Shown in pieces: positions 545 through 62,679 of a DNA stretch of 64,000 nt (position 1 is the stretch's first letter; the number at the start of each line of letters is the position of its first letter). The DNA is from Candidatus Omnitrophota bacterium (GTDB lineage Bacteria > Omnitrophota > Gorgyraeia > Gorgyraeales > Gorgyraeaceae). The DNA lies in assembly GCA_026387235.1 (NCBI GenBank), contig JAPLMD010000026.1:973-64972 (forward strand), given 5' to 3'. A program made the position numbers and the translations under genes. The notes beneath the pieces were generated by a model that was not told the DNA's origin, ran no database searches, and saw only the letters and a list, made by a program, of their open reading frames with translations.

Positions 545-2253
545 ATTTCTTTTACCTGGTTTTCCTTTTTGTAAAACCCGTCCGACTGCCACTCGGACGA
601 ATTCCATTCGATAAATACCTGCCTCAGGCCCTGGAAAAATTTTCTGGCGGAGTCCTTATCTTTGAAATTAAATCCGGATTCCATGATCCCATGCAGCGCG
701 TGAAACACGTATTTCTGCCTTTCTTCAATCGTGGCCGCGTCCACTTCGTCAAACGCATTCTGCTGGAGATACACGTCGTCTATAAACTCGCCTTTAAGGT
801 AAATCGCGAAATCCGAAAGAGATGTGCCTTCTTCTCCCACGACCTTCATCATCTGCTTCACTTCATAGCTCCTTCGTAAAACAGCCTGGGCCTTTTTTAT
901 TTCTTTCTCGTCTATGAAACTAGCGTATTTGCTCCAGCTCTCAAGAGGGTCTATCGCGGGATATCTTCTGGCGTCTGATCTTTCGCGCGAAAGCCCGTGA
1001 AACGCGCCTACGACTTTTAATGTGGCTTGCGTGACAGGCTCTTCAAAGTTTCCTCCGGCCGGGCTCACTGTGCCGCCTATCGTAACAGAGCCTGAACTTC
1101 CGTCGTGTAATCTTACCAGGCCCGCCCTTTCATAAAATGAGGCGATCCTATTTTCAAGATACGCGGGAAACGCTTCTTCTCCCGGAATTTCTTCAAGTCT
1201 TCCTGACATCTCGCGCATTGCCTGCGCCCATCTGGAAGTGGAATCAGCGAGCAGAAGCGCATTTAGTCCCATCTGGCGGTAATACTCAGCAATGGTAACG
1301 GCTGTATAAACGCTTGATTCCCTGGCGCTCACCGGCATCGAGCTGGTGTTGCAGATAATAACAGTCCGCTCTATCAGGCTTTTCTTTGTCCTGGGATCTA
1401 CAAGATGCGGGAATTCCCTCAATGTCTCTACAACCTCGCCTGCCCTTTCTCCGCACGCCGCTATGATAACTATGTCGACTTCCGCGTGTTTGCTTATTAA
1501 CTGCTGCAAAACTGTTTTTCCCGAACCAAAAGGCCCTGGTATGCAGTATGTCCCGCCCAAGGCGACCGGCATGAGCGTATCAATAATCCTGATTTTTGTA
1601 GTCAATGGTTTTACAGGCCTTAATTTTTCGGCAAAGCATGCTATGGGCACTTTTACAGGCCAGGACTGAGACATAGTAACAGGATAAATATTTCCGTTCT
1701 CGTCTTTCAGCTCCGCTATCAAGTGTTTTATGTTATACCTGCCTTTACCGGCTATCTTCGCTACTTCAACCTGGCCTTTTAAGATAAACGGCGCCATGAT
1801 CCAGTGCTCAAAAATACCTTCGGCCGTAAATCCTAATTTTTCTCCGGGTTTTATTTTCTGGCCGATTTTAGCGGCCGGCGTAAATTCCCATTCTTTTTTA
1901 GCGTCCAGCGCTTCCAAGTATAATCCTCTTTTTAAGAAAAACCCTGTCTTTTCGGCTAATTGCGGCAATGGATTCTGCAGGCCGTCGAATATCTGGCCCA
2001 ATAGCCCGGGCCCCAGTTCTACGGAAAGAAGCTCGCCTGTAAATTCCACTCTTTCTCCGAGCTTGAGGCCTTTCGTATCTTCATATATCTGGAGTTCAGC
2101 GACATTGCCCCTGACGCGTATCACTTCTGACTTAAGGCGCTCTTCATTATGCGCGATAAAAGCGACTTCATTCTGCATGACATGGTCTTTAAACTCGACC
2201 GTTGCCATGTTCCCGTTTATGCCGGTTAGTATCCCGATTCTTTCCGCGTTCAT
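520..2253 (-). CDS. atpA: V-type ATP synthase catalytic subunit A (copy 2, diverged paralog of 5904-7667)
   Basis: 577 aa. Walker A-like motif GPFGSGKT. A-subunit signature blocks are present ([45 protein letters not shown]). It is followed by a B subunit. Confidence 0.9.
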
Positions 2254-2750
2254 GTTTTTCCTGTCAATCCTTCTAAAATTTTCATGCCATCGCCTGAATT
2301 AATCCTGTCCCATCTCTCTAATATCTGAAGCTGTAAACCGTATGCCGCAAGATATTCCGTGTCGAAATAATGGCCGGATTTGATCTCTTCTATCTTCTCC
2401 CATCTTATCTTATCCAGATACATTTCCGCGTCCATGGGCGAATGTTGATTCACTGCCCAGTGCGCCAAAGGCGCGATAAAAGGATCAATGCCCTCGCTGC
2501 CGCGTAAATAACTATTCGGATCTTTGCCTTTTTTAACAGCCCTTGTTCTTGCGAGTTCGTTTCTGAGGCCTGTGTCAAAAATCTTCCATTTTTTCAGCAA
2601 AGGGTTTTTATCCTCTTTTAAAGCGCCCATTTCATCCTGGCTCAATTGCCGGCCGCACTCTTCAAGAAAATCCGAATAAGAGAACGCCGGCTTCATGCCG
2701 AAATGAAGCATAGGTAAACTTGCGATTAAATAATAGTAACTATTTTTCAT
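2250..2750 (-). CDS. Hypothetical protein sitting in the conserved E-x-A slot of Chlamydia/Treponema-type V-ATPase operons
   Basis: 166 aa with no recognisable catalytic motif. Its stop overlaps the atpA start (ATGA). The position between subunit E and subunit A matches the uncharacterised gene found there in chlamydial and spirochaetal V-ATPase operons. Confidence 0.4.
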   Translation of the reverse strand: MKNSYYYLIASLPMLHFGMKPAFSYSDFLEECGRQLSQDEMGALKEDKNPLLKKWKIFDTGLRNELARTRAVKKGKDPNSYLRGSEGIDPFIAPLAHWAVNQHSPMDAEMYLDKIRWEKIEEIKSGHYFDTEYLAAYGLQLQILERWDRINSGDGMKILEGLTGKT

Positions 2751-3349
2751 TTTATTACTTTAGCTAATTCCGGATTAAGATATACGCACAAAGTTTCCAG
2801 CAATCCTTCATCGCTGAAATCAAAATATGATTTGCCTTTATCAAAACTTATGGAAAATCCTGCGTTTATATTTGCCGACGGCCTGAATTCCACGCCGGCC
2901 TTGATCCTGTCCTTTAATTTAGACATGACAGAGTCTTTTATTTTTTCCAGGTCTTCTTTTTTTACCAGCACTTTTATGTCGCCTGCCTGGCTGTTTTTAT
3001 CAATATATTTATCTATCAGGCCTGCCAGTATGCCTGTCATCTCTTCATTGGACAGGGCCTTATTTATCTCGCCTGCTATAATCTTATTTAATATATTTTT
3101 TATATCTTCTTTCAAGGAAAGCAAAAGATCCCTGGATGCATGTTTTACGCTGAGATCGGCATTCGCTTTGGTTTTCTCAGCCTCAACCTTAGCCTTCTGA
3201 ACAATCTCATCAGCAAGTTTCTTGGCGTTTTCCAGTATCTTCCCTGCGTCTACCCTGGCCTTATCTTCTATGGCCCTGGCCTTTTCCTCCGCTGATTTTA
3301 TCCCTTCCTGGTTTATTTTTTCAAGAAGATCTTTTAAATTTTCTGACAT
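2747..3349 (-). CDS. atpE: V-type ATP synthase subunit E (copy 2)
   Basis: 200 aa. Lys/Glu/Ala-rich N-terminal coiled coil (EEKARAIEDKARVDAGKILENAKKLADEIVQKAKVEAEK) plus C-terminal globular part. Operon context. Confidence 0.7.
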   Translation of the reverse strand: MSENLKDLLEKINQEGIKSAEEKARAIEDKARVDAGKILENAKKLADEIVQKAKVEAEKTKANADLSVKHASRDLLLSLKEDIKNILNKIIAGEINKALSNEEMTGILAGLIDKYIDKNSQAGDIKVLVKKEDLEKIKDSVMSKLKDRIKAGVEFRPSANINAGFSISFDKGKSYFDFSDEGLLETLCVYLNPELAKVIK

Positions 3350-3909: not shown

Positions 3910-4523
3910 TACCTTATCCTTTCCTTTATAATCTTCAGCATTGAAAACGCTTCTCTTGAATCTTCGTCAAGCCTGTCGTTTATATATTTCACGCTGTCTT
4001 CATAAAAAGGCAGGTATATCTTTTCAAGGGCATTTACCTTTCTTATTGTTTTCTGGACCTCTTTGGCAATCCTGATAAGAGCTATCTTTTTTTCCGCAAG
4101 CTGGGTTATCAGCTTCAGGACTTCTTTGAACCTTATTATAACTTCATCCACATGAAAACTTACTTCATACGTGCTATAGTACGGAGGGTTTTCCTTTACG
4201 TTCATGTTTATTATAGGCAAGCTTACGCCCATGACTCTTCTTTCGGTAATAGAAAGGTTTGTTTTTATGTCTATTGAAAAACTCAATTCTTCTAATCTTT
4301 TTCTGCCCATTATGACAATGGTTTTATCTACGAGCCCATACGCGCTCTGCATGGCAGCATCCACCTCGCGCTGGAGCTTGTCCACGATATGGACGATAGA
4401 AGTCAGTTCATTTATAAGAATCCTTCTTTTCTCGTCTAAAAGATCGTGGCCTTCTCTTGTGAGAGACAATAGCTTCTTGGACTTTAAAAGATTTGTTTTT
4501 GTGGCGGCAATATTAATTTTCAT
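3909..4523 (-). CDS. atpD: V-type ATP synthase subunit D
   Basis: 204 aa. N-terminus [36 protein letters not shown] matches the subunit D consensus (..PTRMELL.LK.RL..A..GH.LL..KR..L). Follows subunit B. Confidence 0.85.
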
Positions 4524-5902
4524 TGTTTTTTCTTATAGTGCTTTTTCAAATCTTCTTCGCGTATCCTCACCAGCTCTTCCGCAGGAAGAGATGATACAAT
4601 ATCCCATCCCAGATCCAGCCCGTCTTCCATGGTCCTGCGCTCCATATGCCCCTGGCTCAGGAATTTTTTCTCAAAATCTTCTCCGAATTTCAGATAAAGT
4701 TTATCCAGGCTGGAAAGCTCTTCTTCTCCTATGATCGACGCGAGCGCCCTGACATCTTTCACGTGGGCGTAGCACGCGAATAACTGCGAAGCCAAAGGCG
4801 GATGATCGTCTCTGGTGAGGCCTTTTCCTATATTATCTTTCATGAGCCTTGACAGAGACGGAAGCCCTGCTATGGGAGGATATATCCCTCTATTGTACAT
4901 CTCTCTCTCGAGAACAATCTGGCCTTCAGTAATGTAGCCCGTGAGGTCAGGTATAGGATGAGTGATGTCGTCGTTAGGCATTGTGAGAATAGGAATCTGC
5001 GTTATAGAGCCTTTGATCCCTTTTATCATACCTGCTCTTTCGTATATGCTCGCCAGGTCGCTATAAAGGTACCCTGGATAGCCTTTTCTAGCCGGTATCT
5101 CGCCTCTTATCGTGGAAACCTCTCTCAACGCCTCGCAATAATTCGACATGTCTGTCATAATTACAAGGACGTGCATGTTTTTCTTGAACGCCAGGTATTC
5201 CGCGCAGGTCAATGCCAGCCTGGGGGTTAAAAGCCTTTCTGTTGACGGGCTGTCAGCCAGGCTCAAAAATATCGCTACCCTTTCAAGGACCCCTGATTCT
5301 TCGAAACTTTTTTGGAAAAATCTCGCCGTATCGTATTTAACTCCCATGGCCACGAAAATGACGCAGAAGTTTTCTCCCTTGACCTGCGACTGGCGCGCGA
5401 TCTGCGTGCCGAGAAGGTCGTGCGGCAGGCCGCTTCCTGAAAATATCGGAAGCTTCTGGCCTCTCACGAGCGTATTCATGACGTCTATTGAAGAAATGCC
5501 TGTCTCTATGATGTTCTCGGGATAATTTCTTGAAACAGGATTTATCGCCAGGCCGTTCACGTTTACCATTTCATCGTACACAGGCCTTGGCATGCCGTCC
5601 AGAGGATTGCCCAGGCCGTCAAAAACCCTGCCCAGGACATCTTCAGACACTCCCATTAAAAGCGGCTTTTCTTTAAAATTCACCCTGCAATTTTTTATAG
5701 CCAGGCCGCTTGTGCCTCCCAGGACTTCCACGATCGCGAAACCTTTGCCGACCTCAAGCGTAATCCCCGGCCTGGACCTGCCTTCGTCATCGACTATCTC
5801 CACAATCTCGTTATATCCTACGTTGTGGATATTGCGTATGATAAAAATAGGCCCTGTTATTTCTTCCAGTCCGACATATTCCCTTAGATTATATTCTTTC
5901 AT
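4520..5902 (-). CDS. atpB: V-type ATP synthase subunit B
   Basis: 460 aa. Non-catalytic P-loop remnant. Conserved [11 protein letters not shown] and [17 protein letters not shown] blocks. Stop/start coupling with A (5902/5904). Confidence 0.9.
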
Positions 5903-5903
5903 A

Positions 5904-7667
5904 TCAAAACTCCAATCCTTCGAGAGAGCTTTCTACTTCGGAAGGCAGCCCGGCTAATTTATCCATGTCTTCTTTTGACTCTGAATATTTAAACCTCATC
6001 CTTATAAGCTCCTGATAAATCTGGCTCTCTTTTATCTCGCTTATATTCATGCCTTTTTTAATAAGCCCGTCGCTTTTCTCGTAAAACTTGATTATGGATT
6101 TCAACATCAGAAATTGTTTGCGGCTCGAGGAATACGCGTCGATATCATCAAAAGCGCTCTGCTGCAGAAACGTATTCTTGAATATGGTGCACGTCTCAAG
6201 TATCAGCCTCTGCCTGTGGGGCAATATATCAGGCCCTACAAGCTTCACAACCTGGAGAAGCCTTTGCTCTTTCTGTAAAAGCTCCATTATGGCGTATCTC
6301 ATAGAAAGCCAGTCTTTATCTACATTTTTATGCCACCAGCCTTTCACGTCGTCCAGATATTCTGAATAGCTGTCTATCCAGCTTATAGAAGGATAATGCC
6401 TTGCGTTTGCGAGGTCCCTGTCGAGCGCCCAGAAACAGCGTATAAATCTCTTTGTGTGCGACGTAACAGGCTCTGAAAAATCTCCGCCCGGAGGAGAAAC
6501 AGAAGCGATAATCGTAATAGAGCCGTTTTCATTATTAAGGGTAGTGATTTTGCCTGCCCTTTCATAGAATTCAGCGAGCCTTGAAGGGAGATACGCCGGA
6601 AATCCTTCTTCAAGAGGCATCTCTTCCAGCCTTCCTGAAAGCTCTCTCAGCGCCTCTGCCCATCTTGAAGTAGAATCAGCCATAAGCGCTACGCTATAAC
6701 CCATGTCCCTGTAATATTCCGCGAGCGTAATACCCGTATAGATGCTGGCTTCTCTCGCCGCAACAGGCATGTTGGAAGTATTTGCTATGAATATGGTCCT
6801 TTCCATGATAGGCCTTTTAGTAACGGGATCGATAAGCTTCGGGAAATTTAAAAGAATATCCGTCATCTCGTTTCCTCTTTCCCCGCAGCCCACGTATATG
6901 ACTATATCCGCATTGCTCCACTTGGCAATCTGATGCTGGATAACAGTCTTGCCTGTCCCGAATCCTCCGGGCACGACAACGCATCCGCCCTTCGCGACAG
7001 GGAACAGCGTATCAATAACTCTCTGGCCGGTAATAAGAGGCTCGTCTACGGGAACCCTTTCTCCGTAAGGCCTGGGACGCCTGACAGGCCACTTTTGATA
7101 CATGAAAATTTCTTTTTCAGAATCCTTTTCTACTAATACCGCGATTTTTTCTTCTAAAGAATATTCGCCTCCCGCAGCAATCCATTTAATCTTTCCATGG
7201 GCATCCGGCGGAACTAAAATCTTGTGTTTTATCAAATTGGTTTCCTGAACTGCTCCTATAACTTCTCCCCGCTTTATATAATCGCCTTCTTTTTTCAAAG
7301 GCTCGAAATGCCATTTCTTTTTCCTGTCCAGGGCAGTGACGTGAACGCCTCTATTGATATAAAAGCCTTCTTTTTCTCTTAATATCTCAAGCGGCCGCTG
7401 TATCCCGTCGTAGATATTTCCCAATAGCCCGGGCCCTAATTCAACGTACAGAGGAAATCCCTGAGTATAGATAATATCTCCTGCTTTAAGAGAAGTAGTA
7501 TCTTCATAAACCTGGATATAGGCCTTGTCGTTTTTTAATCTTACAACCTCTCCGACAAGATGCTCCTGGCCTACCTCCACCATGTCCAGCATCCTTAAGA
7601 AAGTAACCTCTTCCGCTTCAACGACAGGCCCCATTACCCTATACACCTTACCCGCAGCCTTTAACAT
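5904..7667 (-). CDS. atpA: V-type ATP synthase catalytic subunit A (copy 1)
   Basis: 587 aa. Walker A-like motif [26 protein letters not shown] and [27 protein letters not shown] present. Confidence 0.9.
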
Positions 7668-12768: not shown

Positions 12769-12824
12769 ACCTTGGTCCACCTGACAGGTGAGCCAAATGG
12801 CTCACCTGTCAGGTGGACCAAGGT
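12769..12824. repeat. Perfect 27-bp-stem palindrome (2-nt loop) between pyrF and pyrE. Copy 1 of a repeated palindromic element.
   Basis: accttggtccacctgacaggtgagcca|atggctcacctgtcaggtggaccaaggt. Every position 12769-12824 pairs with its mirror, as verified by hand. Core GGTCCACCTG(A/C)CAGGTGAGCC recurs at 58386-58436. Confidence 0.8.
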
Positions 12825-14448: not shown

Positions 14449-15255
14449 TTACCAAATTAACTCGGAGGCGTTAAACACCGGGCCGTCTTTGCAGGCAAGC
14501 TTACTGCCTGATTTCGTTTTGACGACGCACCCGAGGCACGCGCCGATCCCGCAGGCCATCTTTTCCTCTAACGACACCTGGCATTCAAAATTCCTTTCCA
14601 GGCATATATCCGCAATGCATCTGAGCATGCCGTGCGGCCCGCAAACATATACAATAGTTTCAAACTTGCTTTCCGTAGTCTTCAGGATTTTATGGAACAG
14701 CTTCGACACAAAACCCTTGCAGCCATAAGTGCCGTCGTCAGTGGAAACATAAACCTCAGGCGCAGCTTTTTTAAAATCCTTTTCGCATAAAATAAGGCTT
14801 CTTGTTTTCGCGCCTATCAAGACTATTGTTTTTATCTTATTCTTCTTTAGCTCCTCCGCCAGATATACAAGCGGCGCGGCGCCTATGCCGCCGGCAATTA
14901 TAATGGCCCTGGGTTCCAGATTGGAAGTTCCGGGCAGGATAAAACCGTTTCCCAATGGCCCGAGAACATCCACAAATTCTCCGTCTTTTTTCTTAGACAA
15001 AACCTCTGTGCCCTTGCCGACCACCTCATACAGAATCTCTATGCCCCTTTTTACCTTATGTATGCTGAAAGGCCTTCTCAAAAGCGGCTCCGAAGAATCA
15101 CTGCACCTGATCTCCACAAACTGCCCTGGTTTTACAATCCTCGCGATATAAGAGGCGTCGAGATGCATCTTATAATAAGCCGGGCCGACTTTATTATTCG
15201 AGTAGATTTTCGCTTTAATGTCTTTCATGTCAGAATAAATCCAATTGTTTTTCAC
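14449..15255 (-). CDS. pyrK: Dihydroorotate dehydrogenase electron-transfer subunit (FAD / 2Fe-2S)
   Basis: 268 aa. FNR-like FAD/NAD fold with C-terminal Cys cluster (CGPHGML...ACGIGACLGCVV). Confidence 0.85.
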   Translation of the reverse strand: MKNNWIYSDMKDIKAKIYSNNKVGPAYYKMHLDASYIARIVKPGQFVEIRCSDSSEPLLRRPFSIHKVKRGIEILYEVVGKGTEVLSKKKDGEFVDVLGPLGNGFILPGTSNLEPRAIIIAGGIGAAPLVYLAEELKKNKIKTIVLIGAKTRSLILCEKDFKKAAPEVYVSTDDGTYGCKGFVSKLFHKILKTTESKFETIVYVCGPHGMLRCIADICLERNFECQVSLEEKMACGIGACLGCVVKTKSGSKLACKDGPVFNASELIW

Positions 15256-55954: not shown

Positions 55955-58273
55955 ATGATAATGAAACTAAGCCTGAAATTAAACGCCGGCGCTTTTATAC
56001 TAGGCCTTACTTCAATGATAGGCCAGATAATCATTATAAGAGAGCTTGTCAGCGCATTTTACGGCAATGAGCTTTCTTTAGGGATCATCCTCGCATCGTG
56101 GCTCTTTTGGGTTTCGTTCGGCAGTTTGATCCTCGGGAGGCTAGCGGACTTTATCTCTTCCAAAGAAAAACTGCTGTCGCACATACAACTTGCCTTATCA
56201 ATACTTATACCTTTGGATATATTCTTTATCCGCGTTATAAAATCAATTTTAAAGATCCCTGCAGGGAAAATCATCGGCTTGGCGCAGATGCTGGGCGCGT
56301 CTTTTGTATCCCTATCCGCCGTGTGCGCATTATTGGGCCTTAGTTTTATATTGATATCAAAGATTGCCGCAAAAGATAATAACCTGCCGGCTAAGCAGGT
56401 AGGAAAGATTTATCTATTGGAAGGGCTGGGGGCTTCTGTCGGAGGCCTCATATATACGTTTCTCCTTATAAAAGCGTATACGCCTTTTCAAAACGCGCTC
56501 ATTCTCGGGAATCTGAATCTGATCGCGTCGATATTATTCAACAGGAACATAGTCCAGCTGGTATATCTTGTAATATTTTCAACCACGGTCATGTTCAACT
56601 GGCCAAAACACATAGATGGATTCACGAGATCTCTTCAGGTAAGGCCTCTTAAACTCATAGAAAATGCAGACTCAATATACGGAAACATCACTGTAGCAAA
56701 ATTAGAAAATCAATATAGCTTTTATGAAAACGGCGCGTTGATGTTTACCGGAGGGGACATATCAACCAGCGAAGAATCTGTTCATTACGCGATGCTTGAA
56801 CACCCGCAGCCTAAAAAGATACTGCTCGTCGGAGGCGGGATAGGAGGCGCAATAAACCAGATTTTAAAACATAAGCCCGCCAGGATTGATTACGTGGAAT
56901 TAGATCCGTTAATGATAAGCCTTTCCCAAAAATACCTCCCTCCGATAACAGATGACAGGGTAAACATCATACACACAGACGGCAGGCTTTTTGTGAAAGA
57001 TTATTCTTCTCGACTTCGCTCGAAGAATAATAGCGATACTGTTCGAGCAAGCGAAGCGAGTCGAGAACTATCAGGCTACGATGTAGTAATACTAAACCTT
57101 CCTGACCCTTATACTGCAAGCCTCAATAGATTTTATTCCCTGGAATTCTTCCAGGAGGTTAAAAAAATACTGGAGCCAGGGGGTTTATTTTCGTTCGGCC
57201 TTCTTTCTTCCGAGAATTACATAAGCCCGGAACACGCCATGTATCTGAGCTGTATTTATAATACGCTTAAAAAAGAATTCTCTGATGTGAAAATACTCCC
57301 CGGAGATAATATGACGTTTATCGCGTCGCAGGACTCCGGCAGCCTTACTGATGACGCAAACACCATAATAAAAAGGCTGAAGGAAAGAAATATCAAAACC
57401 AAGTTCGTAAGAGAGTATTACATACCTTTTAAATTAGACCCCCTGAGAATCAAATATGTAGAAAGCGCTATCCAAAAATTTAATAATACTAAAATCAATA
57501 CTGACTTCAGGCCTATCGGTTATCTTTATCACGCCATATTATGGGTGAGCTTTTTCGACGCCACGAGAAATTTCCTGCCTTACGTTGATAAGATAAATAT
57601 AGGCATTTTTATCCTGCTGGCATTTGCTTTTTTTATCATAACCCTGTTGACGCAGAAATTAACCATGGCAACTTTAAAATTCCCTGTTCTGATATCCGCC
57701 GGCGCGACAGGCATGAGCCAGATATGTTTTCAGGTAATCATCATGCTGGCGTTCCAATTTATATACGGCTACATGTATTATCAGTTAGGATTTATCCTTA
57801 CCTCATTCATGATAGGGCTCACGCTCGGAAGTTTTTTAATAACAAGCTTCATGGAAAAGATAGAGGATGAAAAATCATTGTATATTAAAACTCAGGCGTG
57901 GATGTCTGTTTATCCGCTGATTCTCGCTATAACCTTGATGGCTGTAGCAAAAATAAACCGGGCCTTTCCTGCCGCGGGAAACATGCTTCAGATAGTTTTT
58001 TTAATAATGCCTGTATTGGGCGGTTTTATAGGCGGATTCCAATTCATTCTCGCGAATAAAATATGGCTCAAAGATTCCAAAGACGTCGGAAAAACAACAG
58101 GCCTTCTCTACGGCATTGATTTAATCGGTTCATGCATAGGCGGGCTGGCAATAGGCGTGATACTCATCCCTCTCCTGGGGATCATTCAGACATGCGCGCT
58201 CTTGAGCGTTATAAATATCTTTATTTTTATATTAATCTCGAATTCCAGGCCTTGTTTTATCCAAAAAATGTGA
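55955..58273 (+). CDS. Polytopic membrane protein fused to a spermidine-synthase-like (aminopropyltransferase-fold) domain
   Basis: 772 aa. About 6 N-terminal and 6 C-terminal TM helices flank a central SpeE-like domain (LLVGGGIGGAINQIL...DYVELDP...HTDGRLFV...YDVVILNLPDP). The only plus-strand gene in the window. Confidence 0.65.
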   Translation: MIMKLSLKLNAGAFILGLTSMIGQIIIIRELVSAFYGNELSLGIILASWLFWVSFGSLILGRLADFISSKEKLLSHIQLALSILIPLDIFFIRVIKSILKIPAGKIIGLAQMLGASFVSLSAVCALLGLSFILISKIAAKDNNLPAKQVGKIYLLEGLGASVGGLIYTFLLIKAYTPFQNALILGNLNLIASILFNRNIVQLVYLVIFSTTVMFNWPKHIDGFTRSLQVRPLKLIENADSIYGNITVAKLENQYSFYENGALMFTGGDISTSEESVHYAMLEHPQPKKILLVGGGIGGAINQILKHKPARIDYVELDPLMISLSQKYLPPITDDRVNIIHTDGRLFVKDYSSRLRSKNNSDTVRASEASRELSGYDVVILNLPDPYTASLNRFYSLEFFQEVKKILEPGGLFSFGLLSSENYISPEHAMYLSCIYNTLKKEFSDVKILPGDNMTFIASQDSGSLTDDANTIIKRLKERNIKTKFVREYYIPFKLDPLRIKYVESAIQKFNNTKINTDFRPIGYLYHAILWVSFFDATRNFLPYVDKINIGIFILLAFAFFIITLLTQKLTMATLKFPVLISAGATGMSQICFQVIIMLAFQFIYGYMYYQLGFILTSFMIGLTLGSFLITSFMEKIEDEKSLYIKTQAWMSVYPLILAITLMAVAKINRAFPAAGNMLQIVFLIMPVLGGFIGGFQFILANKIWLKDSKDVGKTTGLLYGIDLIGSCIGGLAIGVILIPLLGIIQTCALLSVINIFIFILISNSRPCFIQKM
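57003..57070. repeat. Hairpin repeat element copy 2, inserted in-frame inside the spermidine-synthase-like CDS
   Basis: Shares a 27-nt left arm (attcttctcgacttcgctcgaagaata) and right arm (tgttcgagc...gagtcgagaact) with 3355-3425. It encodes ...SSRLRSKNNSDTVRASEASRELSG..., placed in the loop between the DGR and YDVVI motifs of the SpeE fold. Confidence 0.6.
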
Positions 58274-58345
58274 TATAGTATTTATAGAAGGTACTTAAAC
58301 AAGGAGGCGCGTAATAGCGGTAAGCTTCAAGGTTTATAGCCTATA

Positions 58346-58376
58346 AAAAAAGCCCTAAATTTAGGGCTTTTTTTAT
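58346..58376. terminator. Bidirectional Rho-independent terminator
   Basis: aaaaaaaGCCCTAAATTTAGGGCttttttt is a symmetric GC stem flanked by an A-run and a T-run. It lies between convergent genes (+ gene ends 58273, - gene ends 58437). Confidence 0.8.
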
Positions 58377-58385
58377 TTTAACCAT

Positions 58386-58436
58386 GGTCCACCTGCCAGG
58401 TGAGCCATTTGAATTGGCTCACCTGGCAGGTGGACC
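58386..58436. repeat. Palindromic element copy 2 (22-bp stem, 7-nt loop)
   Basis: GGTCCACCTGCCAGGTGAGCCA tttgaat TGGCTCACCTGGCAGGTGGACC. It differs from copy 1 (12769-12824) by A->C in the left arm with the matching T->G in the right arm. The element abuts the stop codon of the Memo-AMMECR1 gene. Confidence 0.8.
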
Positions 58437-59906
58437 TTATAGTGTATCGCCAAATATTTCTGCGCTGAAAATGTAGATTTCTGTAGCTTTATCCTTCCAT
58501 GCGTCTTGAGGAAGGCCTGCTTTCCTGCAGGTTTCTTTTAAGAAAGTCTCTTTGTCCCAATTATATTCCGTGGCTACCTGAGGTAAAAGTAATCCTGAAT
58601 TAAAACCCTTTTTCATGTAAAGCCCATGCCTGCCGACCTCTATCTCGCTTATATCTTTTATTTTCTTTAGAGGCGTCAGGACCGATATCTCAAGTTCCAG
58701 CTTATCCAATTCATCCTGAGTAACAGGATTAAATCTATAATCGTTAACCGCAGCTGATTTAGCAACGTCTTTCACTGTTTCATAAAGCGGTTTTACTGCC
58801 TGTATATAGCCAATGCATCCGCGAAGCTGGCCGCGTTCGTTCAGCGTGACAAATGCCCCGCAATTTTCTTTGAGCTTTTCTTCTGTCACATTGGGATAAA
58901 ATTGTCTTTTGCCGGTAACTGCCTCTATTATTGAAAATCTCGCTATCTCAAGAAGCTTCTTCTTTTCCTCTTTATTAAGATATTCGTCTTCCATGATAAG
59001 CCCTCCCTTCTCTTCCGCTCCTTCAGGCACATATATCAAAATGCTTGAATATCCCACCACCCTGGATTTATCGCCTGTAACATCGCCTGAATTTGCGTAT
59101 TTTAAAAGGACCGCCTTTGCATTATGCCTATTCGCAAACATAATACCGGCAAGAACAGCTACAGGCGCGTCTATCTCTGTGTTTTTGCTGTCAATCTGCT
59201 GCATAAGCCATTCCGCGTCCAGTTTTTCAATAGCGCTTATGCCGCTTGTATCAAGCTTTACTGCCTTATCGTAAGGATAATAATGCGACAGGTCCACGCT
59301 TATGATTACCAGAGTATCCTTGTCCGCAACATCGTAAAGCGCATCGCTTAGTATCTTCATATCCTCGGACGCAGGGATTCCCATAACGATAGGGACTATT
59401 CTAAAATCCCTGTCTTTATACGCTCTTTGCAAAAATGGCAGTTCCACCTCTATCGCGTGTTCTTTTAAATGCGCTTCAGGATAAAAAATAAATCTTTTAT
59501 CCTTTGCCATTATTCTATCGGCAAGCCCTTCGTCTATTTTCACGATTCCAAGCGGGGTTTCAAACGAGCCTTTATTATAAACTGAAATGCCGTCAAAAGC
59601 CACGTAATGGCTCGGAGATATTATGATAATCTTTTTGAAATCTGTTCCTTCCAGCTGTTTAAAACTATGAGCCGCGACCTGGCCGGAATATTCATAGCCC
59701 GCGTGCGGCACAATGATAGCCAAAACCCTGCCTTCTATATCAGATTTTTCGGCATTGGCTAAAAAATCATCTACCTTCCCGGCAAGCTCTCCTTTATTTC
59801 CGGGATAAAACATGCCTGCTACAGCCGGCTTCCTTATGTCTTCAGAATAAGACCTCAAGCAAAAACATAATAATATGGCTATAAAAAATATAACGCCTTT
59901 CATCAT
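58437..59906 (-). CDS. Memo1-family (AmmeMemoRadiSam system protein B) fused to C-terminal AMMECR1 domain (system protein A)
   Basis: 489 aa. N-terminal signal-like helix. Memo/extradiol-dioxygenase-like block AGMFYPG...VPHAGYEYSG...ISPSH. C-terminal ~190 aa carry the AMMECR1 motif CGAFVTLNERGQLRGCIGY. Confidence 0.75.
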   Translation of the reverse strand: MMKGVIFFIAILLCFCLRSYSEDIRKPAVAGMFYPGNKGELAGKVDDFLANAEKSDIEGRVLAIIVPHAGYEYSGQVAAHSFKQLEGTDFKKIIIISPSHYVAFDGISVYNKGSFETPLGIVKIDEGLADRIMAKDKRFIFYPEAHLKEHAIEVELPFLQRAYKDRDFRIVPIVMGIPASEDMKILSDALYDVADKDTLVIISVDLSHYYPYDKAVKLDTSGISAIEKLDAEWLMQQIDSKNTEIDAPVAVLAGIMFANRHNAKAVLLKYANSGDVTGDKSRVVGYSSILIYVPEGAEEKGGLIMEDEYLNKEEKKKLLEIARFSIIEAVTGKRQFYPNVTEEKLKENCGAFVTLNERGQLRGCIGYIQAVKPLYETVKDVAKSAAVNDYRFNPVTQDELDKLELEISVLTPLKKIKDISEIEVGRHGLYMKKGFNSGLLLPQVATEYNWDKETFLKETCRKAGLPQDAWKDKATEIYIFSAEIFGDTL

Positions 59907-59909
59907 AGC

Positions 59910-60059
59910 TCACCCTGCTAATTTCTTATAATACTTCGCTTCTTTGTATGATTTTTTGAACAGGCTCAATTTCTTCAAACCCGGCAAAAGAAAAACCGCA
60001 AATACCCCAAAACCCGCCATCCTCAAAAATTCTCTCCGCGTCATCTTTCTATCCATCAT
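59910..60059 (-). CDS. Small ORF (49 aa) with twin-arginine-like motif, wedged between the radical SAM and Memo-AMMECR1 genes
   Basis: Manual translation gives MMDRKMTRREFLRMAGFGVFAVFLLPGLKKLSLFKKSYKEAKYYKKLAG. TRREFLR matches the Tat consensus S/T-R-R-x-F-L-K and is followed by a hydrophobic h-region. The TGA stop is in-frame, 3 nt before the ATG of the downstream gene. Confidence 0.35.
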   Translation of the reverse strand: MMDRKMTRREFLRMAGFGVFAVFLLPGLKKLSLFKKSYKEAKYYKKLAG

Positions 60060-60068
60060 AAATCCCCT

Positions 60069-61043
60069 CTACTCCCAGCGGCCCGGGATTTTGTTGCTGC
60101 AAAACTTACACTTGCTGTCCACTATATAGTTCTGAGTAACTGTATAGCCGAGTCTTTCAATAATCAGCTTTTTGCACGCCTGGCAATAAGTATTATTGCC
60201 TTCGTGTTCCGGGATATTGCCTACGTACACGTAATTCATGCCTTTTGACATAGCGATATTCCTCGCCAAGATCAGCGATTCTTCAGGCGTGGGCGGCAGG
60301 TTTTTTAACTGATATATCGGCCAGAATTTTGAAAAGTGCATCGGCACATCCGGCCCGAGATTTCCTACAACCCAGTCGCATAGTTTCGAAAAATCATCCT
60401 TGGTGTCATTGTAAGTAGGCACGACGAGATTTACAAGTTCAAGCCAGATCCCTTTTTCTTTTATCAATTTTATGGAATTCATGACAGGGCCGATACTGCC
60501 GCCTGTAACATTCTGGTAAAAATTTTCTGTTATGCCTTTAAAATCCACCTTCACGGCATCCAGAAACTTGCACGCGTCTTCAAGAGGCTTCTGGTTTATA
60601 TACCCTGCTGTAACCCAGATATTCAACAGATTATTTTTATGCGCGATATCCGCTATATCAGCCGCATATTCAAAAAATATAATAGGCTCGGAATAAGTGC
60701 AGGCAATGGTCCTGCATTTATTTTTTATTGCCTCGCTGACAACCTGTTCCGGAGACATGTCTATATTTACGGTATCTTCAGGGTTAGATTGGGATATTTC
60801 CCAATTCTGGCAATACAGACAATGCATATTGCATCCTGCCGTAGCCAAAGAAAAAGACAGCGTCCCGGGCAAAAAATGATAAAAAGGCTTTTTCTCAATA
60901 GGGTCCACGTGCGCGGTGCAGGGTTTTCCGTAAACAAGGGTTTGGAGTTTCCCGTTTATATTCATGCGCGAGCGGCAGTTTCCCCTCTCTCCCTCTTTTA
61001 ATTCGCAGCCCCTGGGACACAATAAACACTTTACTTTTTTCAT
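60069..61043 (-). CDS. AmmeMemoRadiSam system radical SAM enzyme (PFL-activase-like)
   Basis: 324 aa. CLLCPRGCEL N-terminal Cys pair plus CNMHCLYCQNWEIS CxxxCxxC motif. Adjacent to the Memo/AMMECR1 gene. Confidence 0.8.
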   Translation of the reverse strand: MKKVKCLLCPRGCELKEGERGNCRSRMNINGKLQTLVYGKPCTAHVDPIEKKPFYHFLPGTLSFSLATAGCNMHCLYCQNWEISQSNPEDTVNIDMSPEQVVSEAIKNKCRTIACTYSEPIIFFEYAADIADIAHKNNLLNIWVTAGYINQKPLEDACKFLDAVKVDFKGITENFYQNVTGGSIGPVMNSIKLIKEKGIWLELVNLVVPTYNDTKDDFSKLCDWVVGNLGPDVPMHFSKFWPIYQLKNLPPTPEESLILARNIAMSKGMNYVYVGNIPEHEGNNTYCQACKKLIIERLGYTVTQNYIVDSKCKFCSNKIPGRWE

Positions 61044-61216
61044 TCTTCTATAACCCTGTAATATTTTGCTTCCCTTGGATGTAAGCCTTTTTTTTCTATG
61101 CTGTTCAGATTGGTTTTTAGAATGCTTGGCCTTGGTTTATTAGCGCGCATAATTGCCGCTCCTATCATTACAAGGATTAATATAATGACTAGATTAAAAA
61201 TTATTTTTTTAACCAT
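61040..61216 (-). CDS. Small single-TM protein (58 aa), translationally coupled (ATGA) to the downstream radical SAM gene
   Basis: Manual translation gives MVKKIIFNLVIILILVMIGAAIMRANKPRPSILKTNLNSIEKKGLHPREAKYYRVIEE. Absent from the ORF track (<60 aa). Start overlaps the lgt stop by a few nt. Confidence 0.35.
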   Translation of the reverse strand: MVKKIIFNLVIILILVMIGAAIMRANKPRPSILKTNLNSIEKKGLHPREAKYYRVIEE

Positions 61217-61925
61217 GCCTTCTCTTTATGTATAAAATCGTCGCTATTATAAACATCAATATACTCGTGAGGCCTGCCAAAGTCAACGCCGTATTCCATA
61301 GATAAACATTATCCGCCCTGAACTGGGAAACAATAATCCTGATGACTCCGTACGCCATAAGGTATAATAAAAATAACCCGCCAACAAATTTCACCTTTTT
61401 TCTTAAGTTCCATAATAGTAAAAATCCTGCGAAATCTAAAATAAGCTCATAAATCTGGGTAGGATGATTCTCCATGCCGAATAATGGTTTTATCGGCATG
61501 CCAAAACAGCACCCGTTTAAAAAACAGCCTATCCTTCCGATCGCTTGGCCCAGTATTATGGAAGGCGCTATCAAATCAGCCAATGCCCAGAAAGAAATCT
61601 TTCTGGCCTTTGAAAATATAATGCCTGCTATTACGCCTCCAAAGATCCCTCCGTGTATAGCAAGTCCTCCCTGCCACACCTTAAATATAGACACAGGATC
61701 TTCTGAAAAATCCTTAAGGCCGAAAAAAAGGATGTAATAAATCCTCGCGCCTATTATCGAACCTATCAGCAGATAAAAACCAAGGTCATATACCAGGTCC
61801 GGCTTTATATTTTTTCTTACAGCCTCGCGCCTGGCAATAAATATCCCAAACAAAAAAGCTATGGCGACCATCATGCCATAGCTATAAATTATAAAAGGCC
61901 CGATTTTAGCTATTATAGGATGCAT
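61209..61925 (-). CDS. lgt: Prolipoprotein diacylglyceryl transferase
   Basis: 238 aa. Polytopic. Conserved GARIYY and GRIGCFLNGCCFG signature regions of Lgt. Confidence 0.8.
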   Translation of the reverse strand: MHPIIAKIGPFIIYSYGMMVAIAFLFGIFIARREAVRKNIKPDLVYDLGFYLLIGSIIGARIYYILFFGLKDFSEDPVSIFKVWQGGLAIHGGIFGGVIAGIIFSKARKISFWALADLIAPSIILGQAIGRIGCFLNGCCFGMPIKPLFGMENHPTQIYELILDFAGFLLLWNLRKKVKFVGGLFLLYLMAYGVIRIIVSQFRADNVYLWNTALTLAGLTSILMFIIATILYIKRRHG

Positions 61926-61929
61926 AAAA

Positions 61930-62679
61930 TTATCTTATCTCTAAATCCGCCTTACCTGTCCTTTGTTTTGCGAAATCCCAGGAGTAATCGTAAAGATGGA
62001 GCCCTTTGCTGGCAGCTATAATTTCCCCATTCTCAACGCCTATTTCTTCTGCCATATATTGCTTCACAAGCTCCAGCCCGCCTAAATTTGAAGGGAAGCC
62101 TCCCCATAAATCCCATGACCTGAAATAAAGGAAGAAATGCAGTTTCCCGTAACGAATCCTTGTATCTATAAGCCGCAGGCACGGCGGATCAATCAGCTTT
62201 ATGTCAGAAGGCATGCCTATCTCTATTATAGCCTGATTAGTGCCATGCCCATGGGTTTTGTACATCTTTATAACTTCTTCAACCTGATTTACTTCTAAAG
62301 GCATCTCCCTGACCATTTCCTTGCCGTCTACTGTTTCCTTCAGCCTGACCTTTGCGTCCACCATTCTTTCGCCATAGGTATAGTCTTCGGTATTTGTTTT
62401 CTGGCCTGTCAATAAATACGAAAGGTAACCGTTTATGTATTCCATGCTCGTAGGCGCAGGAATGCTTGAACCTTCGGGTATTATAGGTATCATCTGATGG
62501 CTTGGATTTTTTATCCTGATGGTAACAAAATCAAATTCAAGCCTTTTCTGGCCGGCGTAACTGCCTCTCGTGATCGTATACACGTGCCCGCATTCTAAAA
62601 TCTTTGAAAGGCACCTGAACCACGCGTCGTCTAAATCAAACGCCTCTATGTGAACCGGTTTAAGCTCGTTTCTCTCCAC
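61930..62679 (-). CDS. Thymidylate synthase-family protein (short, archaeal-like ThyA fold)
   Basis: 249 aa. DPPCLRLIDTRIRYGKLHFFLYFRSWDLWGGFPSNLGGLELV aligns to the ThyA active-site region [40 protein letters not shown], including the catalytic Cys. Confidence 0.55.
   Translation of the reverse strand: MERNELKPVHIEAFDLDDAWFRCLSKILECGHVYTITRGSYAGQKRLEFDFVTIRIKNPSHQMIPIIPEGSSIPAPTSMEYINGYLSYLLTGQKTNTEDYTYGERMVDAKVRLKETVDGKEMVREMPLEVNQVEEVIKMYKTHGHGTNQAIIEIGMPSDIKLIDPPCLRLIDTRIRYGKLHFFLYFRSWDLWGGFPSNLGGLELVKQYMAEEIGVENGEIIAASKGLHLYDYSWDFAKQRTGKADLEIR

Follow-up and report, generated by a model that had tools for sequence, protein, structure and literature searches.

Memo and AMMECR1 are protein families conserved from archaea to humans and linked to human disease, and in the AmmeMemoRadiSam system they are joined by a radical S-adenosylmethionine (SAM) enzyme. 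Burroughs and colleagues reportedly proposed in 2019 that the system modifies nucleotide bases or isoprenoids. RNA base modification had been proposed earlier (PMC2034487), and since fusions of AMMECR1 with a dioxygenase-like gene were reported in that same paper of 2007, a Memo-AMMECR1 fusion is not in itself new; Memo-AMMECR1 fusions and their gene neighbourhood also figure in Burroughs et al. (2019), as far as that work is cited in PMC7159879. Literature searches turned up no functional study of the AmmeMemoRadiSam system and no discussion of a radical SAM enzyme of this family split into three pieces or of a family-wide pattern of leaders, with the proviso that Burroughs et al. (2019) may mention some of the contexts. 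Here we describe an AmmeMemoRadiSam locus within a 64,000-nucleotide stretch (hereafter "the window") of contig JAPLMD010000026.1, which belongs to a Candidatus Omnitrophota metagenome-assembled genome (locus tags of the NTX47_ series). Its radical SAM enzyme (rSAM) is probably split into three pieces, two of which are small membrane proteins that would act in trans as anchoring or targeting subunits rather than as substrates. The genes concerned are closely packed on the minus strand, in the following order:

61209-61925, minus strand: lgt (prolipoprotein diacylglyceryl transferase), 238 residues, directly upstream of P58
61040-61216, minus strand: P58, a 58-residue single-pass membrane protein consisting of an anchor helix, a linker and a detached copy of the first beta-strand motif of rSAM
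60069-61043, minus strand: AmmeMemoRadiSam radical SAM gene (rSAM), 324 residues, core-only form, matching TIGR04337
59910-60059, minus strand: P49, a 49-residue protein with a signal or anchor of the twin-arginine translocation (Tat) type and, once more, the strand motif of the rSAM N-terminus
58437-59906, minus strand: Memo-AMMECR1, 489 residues, fused Memo and AMMECR1 with a putative N-terminal lipoprotein-type signal, matching Pfam and NCBIfam models

As in the described system, all three components are present, adjacent and above the model cut-offs. The rSAM protein scores 374.6 bits against TIGR04337 (cut-off 220), a match that covers model positions 11-334 only, and the single Memo-AMMECR1 polypeptide (GenBank MCX5692543.1, named AmmeMemoRadiSam system protein B) scores 275.7 bits against TIGR04336 (protein B/Memo) and 198.3 bits against TIGR04335 (protein A/AMMECR1), both above their cut-offs, with Pfam placing Memo at residues 26-289 (7.8e-63) and AMMECR1 at residues 320-485 (7.8e-60). 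The end of lgt overlaps the start of P58 by 8 nucleotides, the stop codon of P58 and the start codon of rSAM share the sequence ATGA, 9 nucleotides separate the rSAM stop from the P49 start, and 3 nucleotides separate the P49 stop from the Memo-AMMECR1 start, so that the fused gene lies 160 nucleotides downstream of rSAM. Unlike the described system, the rSAM of the window is a core-only enzyme, its first strand being found on two separate small membrane proteins, and its Memo-AMMECR1 differs by the putative lipoprotein-type signal. A preliminary description of this DNA had already recognized an AmmeMemoRadiSam locus with a Memo-AMMECR1 fusion and four open reading frames (ORFs), and these are all present, on the minus strand, where it placed them; it had also rightly seen that the fused protein opens with a signal- or membrane-like segment, which is hydrophobic and contains a cysteine, and that the ORF upstream of rSAM encodes a protein with one hydrophobic helix. 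It was mistaken in calling the two small ORFs unannotated, both being deposited in GenBank as "hypothetical protein" (P58, MCX5692546.1, NTX47_02500; P49, MCX5692544.1, NTX47_02490), and it overlooked both a motif common to the two ORFs and the N-terminal truncation of rSAM relative to its family.

These last two features are the central observation. The C-termini of P49 (ending in ...SYKEAKYYKKLAG) and P58 (ending in ...HPREAKYYRVIEE) share the sequence [KR]EAKYY, and unsplit AmmeMemoRadiSam rSAM enzymes natively have [HK]EAxxYxKL near the N-terminus, some 14 residues ahead of the first CxxCxxxC. Across 30 unsplit loci the 16 residues preceding the first cysteine align in register (x[HK]EAxxYxKLxxxxVx); leaderless archaeal and bacterial enzymes start with the motif (MHEAILYKKL....V.C..C), and many others have it behind a leader. 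The window rSAM is without it, starting with MKKVK immediately before CLLCPRGC, and no copy of the motif was found in the in-frame sequence upstream. The relevant elements of the two small proteins are as follows:

61148-61204, minus strand: P58 hydrophobic helix, residues 5-23, IIFNLVIILILVMIGAAIM, read from the translation and conserved in the P58 alignment
61046-61075, minus strand: P58 tail motif REAKYYRVIE, the counterpart of the motif with which unsplit rSAM enzymes are equipped N-terminally
60021-60041, minus strand: P49 Tat-like motif TRREFLR, residues 7-13, from the P49 alignment
59916-59945, minus strand: P49 tail motif KEAKYYKKLA, matched by a position-specific scoring matrix (PSSM) of the rSAM N-terminal motif

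This PSSM was derived from 21 unsplit enzymes, none of them from the split clade, and scored on the 80,451 stop-free 10-mers of the six-frame translated window. The P49 tail ranked first (19.5 bits; next 11.8) and the P58 tail fourth (10.2 bits), and the matches ranked between them lie in non-coding frames or unrelated genes; the high matches at 5681-5710 (plus strand) and 14775-14804 (minus strand) were dismissed as chance, since one runs antisense to a gene for an ATPase subunit and the other falls within a gene of no relation to the system. When either tail was joined to rSAM, the TIGR04337 match reached model position 2, with a gain of 3.6 bits for P58 and 3.1 bits for P49, compared with 0.4 bits and no extension for a shuffled tail. 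A nucleotide element such as a ribosome-binding site or RNA motif was rejected as the source of the shared motif, since copies and orthologues differ at synonymous sites and the match is to a protein PSSM built from unrelated enzymes; likewise, an Rfam scan found no family inside either ORF. Judged by sequence, both small proteins are conserved, separately encoded versions of the front end that rSAM lacks (a membrane anchor or export signal together with the first beta-strand), which makes them probable tethering or targeting subunits rather than modified peptides.

The position of the split can be placed on a structure. For P0105, a full-length leaderless homologue, AlphaFold2 run on an alignment of 50 sequences gave a confident model (mean predicted local distance difference test score 95.1, predicted template modelling score 0.93) with a strand at residues 11-14 (YTKL, the end of the motif) and, after a two-residue gap, a second strand at residues 17-20 (NVQC), which we read as a beta-hairpin. 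Aligned with full-length enzymes, the window rSAM starts exactly in the hairpin turn, and both tails stop at the same point, 10 residues after the conserved Glu. This suggests that the rSAM gene was split at the hairpin turn, with strand 1 carried by P58 and again by P49. The 324-residue rSAM would accordingly represent the catalytic core only, its hairpin strand 2 leading into the first CxxCxxxC, and each tail would dock on this core by donating the missing strand 1, that is, by beta-strand complementation in trans. From the colinearity with fused enzymes and the hairpin model, we consider such physical complementation slightly more probable than its absence. Among solved structures, the only matches were to pyruvate formate-lyase-activating enzyme, over core residues 78-285, and none covers the N-terminal domain. 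Another core-only rSAM, P0278, has in its gene table an upstream ORF overlapping the rSAM start.

The preliminary description had called the P49 peptide a candidate substrate or partner of the system. P49, and perhaps P58, would on the first of these options be a peptide substrate or cofactor precursor comparable to PqqA or to the precursors of ribosomally synthesized and post-translationally modified peptides, with a Tyr-containing motif modified by rSAM and then by Memo and AMMECR1. The resemblance is real in that the small ORFs directly neighbour an activase-like rSAM, show strict co-location with the system and encode a motif with conserved Glu and Tyr; binding of a phosphotyrosine peptide is also reported for human Memo (as cited in PMC7694686). 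But the motif is the N-terminal strand of the enzyme itself, confidently modelled as a structural element in P0105; leaderless enzymes open with it in cis, and at least 100 clusters have it following a leader, so that the conserved residues belong to an enzyme fold. Unlike known precursors, the two peptides show no leader/core organization and no variable core, and neither this locus nor related loci contain processing genes such as a protease or an exporter/transporter. Most AmmeMemoRadiSam loci, moreover, do without such a peptide. A PqqA-like substrate with a Glu-Tyr cross-link was dropped as a candidate once the motif turned out to be the enzyme's own N-terminus. The substrate role thus finds no support and is very improbable, while the partner role is supported.

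That both small ORFs are genuine genes is borne out by their distribution and their evolution. Database homologues number 17 for P49 (71-100% identity) and 12 for P58 (63-93% identity). When species-representative genomes were searched with the rSAM protein, 49 loci resulted, among which the two small ORFs are found beside rSAM in independent assemblies: they occupy the same positions in L001-L004, L006 and L007, all Omnitrophota loci, and also in the distant loci L005 and L010, where rSAM is 62% and 50% identical, respectively. Overall, they are kept jointly in lineages in which rSAM is only 50-65% identical (L003-L005, L010, L062-L066). A metagenome scan with the P49 alignment returned 21 loci, 18 of them matching all or nearly all of P49, and every one of these 18 true relatives is adjacent to rSAM, to Memo-AMMECR1 or to both; the remaining three match the first 23 residues only, a segment that resembles the signals of a multicopper oxidase, a molybdopterin oxidoreductase and a solute-binding lipoprotein. 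Evolutionarily, the pairwise ratios of non-synonymous to synonymous substitutions (dN/dS) are low (0.09-0.32 for P49, 0.08-0.28 for P58), and synonymous sites are saturated or nearly so, which corresponds to purifying selection on both at the protein level. The ATGA overlap between P58 and rSAM is found in at least 15 independent assemblies with differing bases after it (a spacer takes its place in L003 and L058). An assembly error or a programmed frameshift at the A-run of this junction (ATGAAAAAAG) was ruled out, the stop codon preceding the A-run and the following bases varying among assemblies (ATGACAAAGG, ATGAATAAGG, ATGACCAGGG); the overlap is thus neither an assembly error nor a conserved slippery site.

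These data also bear on the possibility that the small ORFs are spurious, or decaying, functionless remnants of a rearrangement, such as a fragmented rSAM or a relic second copy. They are short, have no Pfam family and resemble fragments of a longer gene, all of which would fit. Decay is however difficult to reconcile with a dN/dS in the range 0.08-0.32 at near-saturated synonymous sites, with the retention of both ORFs beside strongly diverged rSAM genes, and with the conservation of their translationally coupled junctions, and we regard it as very improbable. Homology, colinearity, conservation and linkage to rSAM are established for the pieces.

What the small proteins would add besides the strand is suggested by relatives in which the same parts form one chain. 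In P0030, an annotated AmmeMemoRadiSam rSAM enzyme from a Woesearchaeota metagenome-assembled genome (locus L067), a P49-like sequence is the enzyme's N-terminus: KKITRREFLK, a hydrophobic region, a linker and then VKEAYHYSQLAGG-LVECQVCPNHC, with a leader region 40% identical to P49. A search with P0030 retrieved at least 120 clusters at 90% identity, most of them about 380-420 residues long and with at least 93% query coverage, from Woese-, Aenigm-, Alti-, Nano- and Theionarchaea and others, and those inspected read K-[IM]-[ST]-R-R-[ED]-F-[IL]-K-K ... WKWSKE[AG]YHY.KLG. Six of eight fused leaders tested exceed the 16.7-bit cut-off of the Tat signal model TIGR01409 (passing scores 16.8-27.0 bits). 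Full-length Tat-leader enzymes such as P0030, P0067 and P0097 (about 385-420 residues) share with the window both the core and the type of leader (K-I-[ST]-R-R-[ED]-F-[LI]-K, h-region, linker, KEAYHY.KLG); the difference is that theirs is a single chain, whereas in the window the gene downstream of the core encodes the leader as a protein of its own, in relatives of which Lys often stands for the second Arg. P49 itself, read from its translation, has TRREFLR followed by a Gly-rich, moderately hydrophobic h-region and a basic c-region, and T7, R8 and F11 (T-R-x-x-F) are invariant in its alignment.

P58 has counterparts of another kind. No Pfam family matches P49 or P58, and the window P58 is without an FMN-binding domain, whereas the protein in the P58 position of four related loci consists of an anchor helix, an FMN_bind domain (PF04205) with a flavinylation-type motif D.ITGATIS, and then an EAKYY-type tail (for example GLEPREAKYYEIVE):

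L003, 3492-3974: FMN_bind protein in the P58 position (E-value 2.3e-17)
L004, 3385-4008: FMN_bind protein in the P58 position (2.8e-16)
L005, 3299-3979: FMN_bind protein in the P58 position (8.1e-17)
L065, 1360-1881: FMN_bind protein in the P58 position

This suggests that the window P58 is a version that has lost the flavin domain, being reduced to anchor and tail. In carrying FMN_bind with a flavinylation-type motif, such relatives resemble membrane electron-transfer proteins of the NosR/NapH/PceC type, whose FMN_bind domain is extracytoplasmic, and some are themselves NosR/NapH-like, with CX3CP motifs, and fused to or located beside rSAM; in L064, a NosR/NapH-like protein with FMN_bind and a multi-pass membrane domain (567-1727) precedes an 85-residue P58-like gene. 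Flavin enzymes also occur near split systems, namely a signal-peptide-bearing nitroreductase-family protein (L003:2085-2732), an ORF judged by eye to be nitroreductase-like (L004:28-642) and an NADPH-dependent FMN reductase directly upstream of the split system in L010 (3027-3581).

An exhaustive profile search with the window rSAM, summarized by 150 cluster representatives, returned fusions as its best matches. P0154, P0162 and P0166 run from FMN_bind through NapH-like helices with two CX3CP motifs and one further helix to the motif and rSAM; P0152 and P0169 have multi-pass membrane domains, and P0163 and P0164 FMN_bind, fused to rSAM; P0151 has a large signal-peptide domain ahead of it (..ISPREAKYYLQLSGGKVQC); and P0155 has an RK-type leader with a lipobox (YMTRKEFLKLV...LSPREAEHYVHLGG). 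Elsewhere, the single ORF of L019 combines a non-Tat hydrophobic anchor, a linker and GLSMHEAMWYKKIVDGSVQC with rSAM, the motif reading GLSMHEAMWY... A rough census of the 150 representatives by regular expression and hydropathy gave the following N-terminal types:

leaderless start: 76 of 150
Tat-RR leader: 21 of 150
RK leader: 2 of 150
other transmembrane leader: 6 of 150
long N-terminal fusion: 13 of 150
short extension without a helix: 18 of 150
could not be parsed: 14 of 150

The family also includes single Memo-AMMECR1-rSAM chains (P0171, P0180) with the motif at the domain junction (for example KTKYYTKLDNNKVRC), and chains of about 1000-1100 residues with an N-terminal rSAM exist as well (P0190, P0201 and P0204).

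By analogy with these fused forms, P58 would be the membrane tether of the core, equivalent to the "last transmembrane helix plus motif" piece of the FMN-binding and NosR/NapH-like rSAM fusions, and in relatives it would connect the core with an electron-donor module of flavin or NosR-like type. For P49 the role would be that of a detachable signal or anchor of Tat type, the counterpart of the leader fused to rSAM in many archaea and bacteria, and could target the folded, Fe-S-loaded core for export as a hitchhiker. In Tat hitchhiking, a partner without a signal is exported together with a signal-bearing subunit (PMC10924467). A signal-bearing carrier with a signal-less, cofactor-loaded partner would be the feature shared with hydrogenase-2 (HybO/HybC) and formate dehydrogenases, and the "formate dehydrogenase region TAT target" family (TIGR02811) resembles P49 in being very small, with a Tat-type signal and a short conserved C-terminal region. 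Unlike in known hitchhikers, P49 would add no more than one beta-strand of about 10 structured residues, and its score against the Tat model is below threshold. We offer Tat-dependent export of the core as a tentative proposal, somewhat less likely to be right than wrong.

Several observations weigh against parts of this scheme. The second Arg of the Tat-like motif is replaced in most stand-alone P49 relatives (Lys in 19 of 27, Arg in seven, Gln in one), and P49 scores 13.1 bits against TIGR01409, short of its cut-off; the near-consensus twin-arginine motif of the preliminary description is therefore present in the window protein as TRREFLR, but its second Arg is not a conserved feature. No tatA or tatC was found in the 64-kb window with E. 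coli proteins as queries, a weak result that is uninformative either way. The flanks on the C-terminal side of the helices are rich in Lys (eight Lys after the P49 helix, RANKPRPSILK in P58), and by the positive-inside rule such flanks fit the opposite topology, with tails and core in the cytoplasm. An extracytoplasmic rSAM would need SAM and intact Fe-S clusters in that compartment, and we know of no precedent for a radical SAM enzyme outside the cytoplasm. Finally, the gain in hidden Markov model score from the added tails is small (about 3 bits), and the two tails carry the same strand and would compete for one site, the scheme giving no reason for the retention of both.

This last point invites a different role, in which the tails act as regulators or decoys that compete for the core, or dock onto Memo-AMMECR1, and so control assembly rather than simply complete a fold. 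Two proteins with the same strand for a single site, and a P49 gene lying 3 nucleotides upstream of Memo-AMMECR1, would suit such a role; we found no evidence of a binding site on Memo or AMMECR1, and in every fused form the motif is colinear with the rSAM fold, which makes it highly improbable.

The topological points lead to the main rival of an exported core, namely a tether on the cytoplasmic face of the membrane. Here the helices would run N-out/C-in, or the Tat-like motif of P49 would have decayed, and the tails would hold the core on the inner face, where SAM and reductant are at hand, while the lipoprotein Memo-AMMECR1 would act outside on a membrane-crossing substrate, for example a lipid. 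The C-terminal flanks are indeed more basic than the N-terminal ones, RK or RQ stands in place of RR in 20 of the 27 stand-alone P49 relatives, the Tat score is sub-threshold, and radical SAM chemistry is, to our knowledge, confined to the cytoplasm. In another Omnitrophota locus, L021, a leaderless rSAM is paired with a lipoprotein-type Memo-AMMECR1, which indicates that the two need not share a compartment and speaks against a scheme in which they do (a DUF1015 protein, 4335-5591, lies between them, and there are no small ORFs). Against a cytoplasmic tether, basic c-regions are typical of Tat signals, T-R-x-x-F is invariant in P49, and homologous fused leaders pass the Tat signal model. The counterpart of P58 in relatives sits after an FMN_bind domain, a domain that usually faces outward. 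In NapH and NosR the second CX3CP motif is cytoplasmic, and the NosR/NapH-like fusions place one extra helix between this motif and rSAM. On balance, a core tethered inside the cell strikes us as unlikely, though worth keeping in view.

On the export reading, the core would come to lie beside the lipoprotein-type Memo-AMMECR1 on the outer face of the membrane, the side that the tails, too, would face. The signal of Memo-AMMECR1 was compared among orthologues:

59859-59906, minus strand: Memo-AMMECR1 signal or lipobox-like segment, MMKGVIFFIAILLCFC

In the window this segment reads ..AILLCFC.., and LCFC is atypical at position -1 of the lipobox [LVI][ASTVI][GAS]C. Orthologues have LLSC, LISC, LFSC, LCSC or ITGC, typically L-[LIF]-S-C followed by a Ser-rich linker. 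On Memo-AMMECR1 the split clade has a lipoprotein-type signal and the Tat-type loci L018 and L067 have a signal or anchor, while six of seven leaderless loci have none.

Membrane proteins of electron-transfer types stand beside, or are fused to, leader-bearing rSAM enzymes. In L071 (DsbD_2 and Fer4_5, 1658-3016) and L073 (DsbD_TM, 6443-7099) such proteins flank the fused forms, a NosR-like FMN_bind protein with CX3CP helices is found in L064 (567-1727) and a NapH-like protein in L067 (4158-4907); the 64-kb window contains no NapH-, NosR- or DsbD-like gene. Taken together, the Memo-AMMECR1 signals, the FMN_bind domains, the extra helix of the NosR-like fusions and the DsbD-type neighbours point to an extracytoplasmic system.

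A further membrane protein recurs in these neighbourhoods, related to the major facilitator superfamily (MFS) and to spermidine synthase:

55955-58273, plus strand: fused MFS/spermidine-synthase-like membrane protein, 772 residues, convergent with Memo-AMMECR1; 52.9 bits against NF037959 (cut-off 40)
L016, 5069-7105: MFS/spermidine-synthase-like homologue
L018, 4975-7023: MFS/spermidine-synthase-like homologue
L067, 7-1707: MFS/spermidine-synthase-like homologue
L071, 4787-6952: MFS/spermidine-synthase-like homologue

The homologues (23-33% identity, E-values down to 2e-99) stand directly beside leader-bearing rSAM genes in four unrelated arrangements (L016, L018, L067 and L071/72), and none was seen beside a leaderless rSAM in about 25 loci. 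With its SAM-binding fold, this protein may be a further component of the membrane variant. It is tempting to speculate that the entire Memo/AMMECR1/rSAM pathway operates outside the cytoplasmic membrane, with P49 both carrying the core through Tat and donating a strand, with P58-type anchors, FMN_bind, NapH/NosR-like and DsbD-like modules as the source of electrons, and with the MFS/spermidine-synthase-like protein perhaps supplying or binding a SAM-derived cosubstrate. Such a scheme would cover the Tat-leader, FMN_bind-fused and NosR/DsbD-associated lineages as well as the split one; as a whole we hold it to be unlikely, to about the same degree as a cytoplasmic tether.

The remaining features concern the ends of the operon:

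58343-58436, minus strand: operon 3' end, with a perfect palindrome of 22 bp (58386-58436) and then a hairpin that has U-tracts and resembles a bidirectional terminator (58343-58376)
61258-61286, minus strand: promoter-like site TTGACT-17-TATATT from a consensus scan, inside the 3' end of lgt, about 40 nucleotides upstream of P58

The RNA fold of the 3' end has -71 kcal/mol (z = -12.8), and an Rfam scan of it gave sub-threshold hairpin matches only. Two copies of the palindromic hairpin, which pairs GGTCCACCTGCCAGGTGAGCCA with its reverse complement, are present in the window (58386-58436 and 12774-12819), where none is expected by chance, and it looks like a repeated element similar to repetitive extragenic palindromes; the first copy overlaps the final base of the Memo-AMMECR1 stop codon and precedes the terminator. 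The promoter-like site agrees with the consensus at 10 of 12 positions, a pattern match alone that carries no evidence of function. Upstream, the adjacency of lgt and P58 is retained across Omnitrophota loci, in which Memo-AMMECR1 bears a lipobox-type signal, and may be plain synteny. A thymidylate synthase gene (61930-62679, minus strand), whose best model is the methanogen-type TIGR03283 (104.5 bits, below the cut-off of 174.55), belongs to a conserved HAD / NYN / ThyA-like / lgt block upstream of the system.

With respect to earlier work, what appears to be new is an rSAM enzyme split into three pieces, in which a Tat-type leader and an anchor exist as proteins of their own, each bearing strand 1; apparently new, too, is the recurrence across the family of leaders, electron-transfer modules and partners with signals. 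The locus suggests that the N-terminal hairpin of rSAM can be split and that small membrane proteins, of which one is essentially just a Tat-type signal, can supply strand 1. Much of the rSAM family carries export signals or anchors and lies beside electron-transfer modules and signal-bearing Memo-AMMECR1 proteins, which offers leads on where the AmmeMemoRadiSam system acts, on the reductant of its enzyme and on its member proteins. If Tat hitchhiking were true, P49 would be a minimal natural trans-acting signal peptide and its cargo a radical SAM enzyme outside the cytoplasm. If the pathway as a whole were extracytoplasmic, it would be the first such radical SAM system and would suggest that the Memo and AMMECR1 families have a substrate in the cell envelope.

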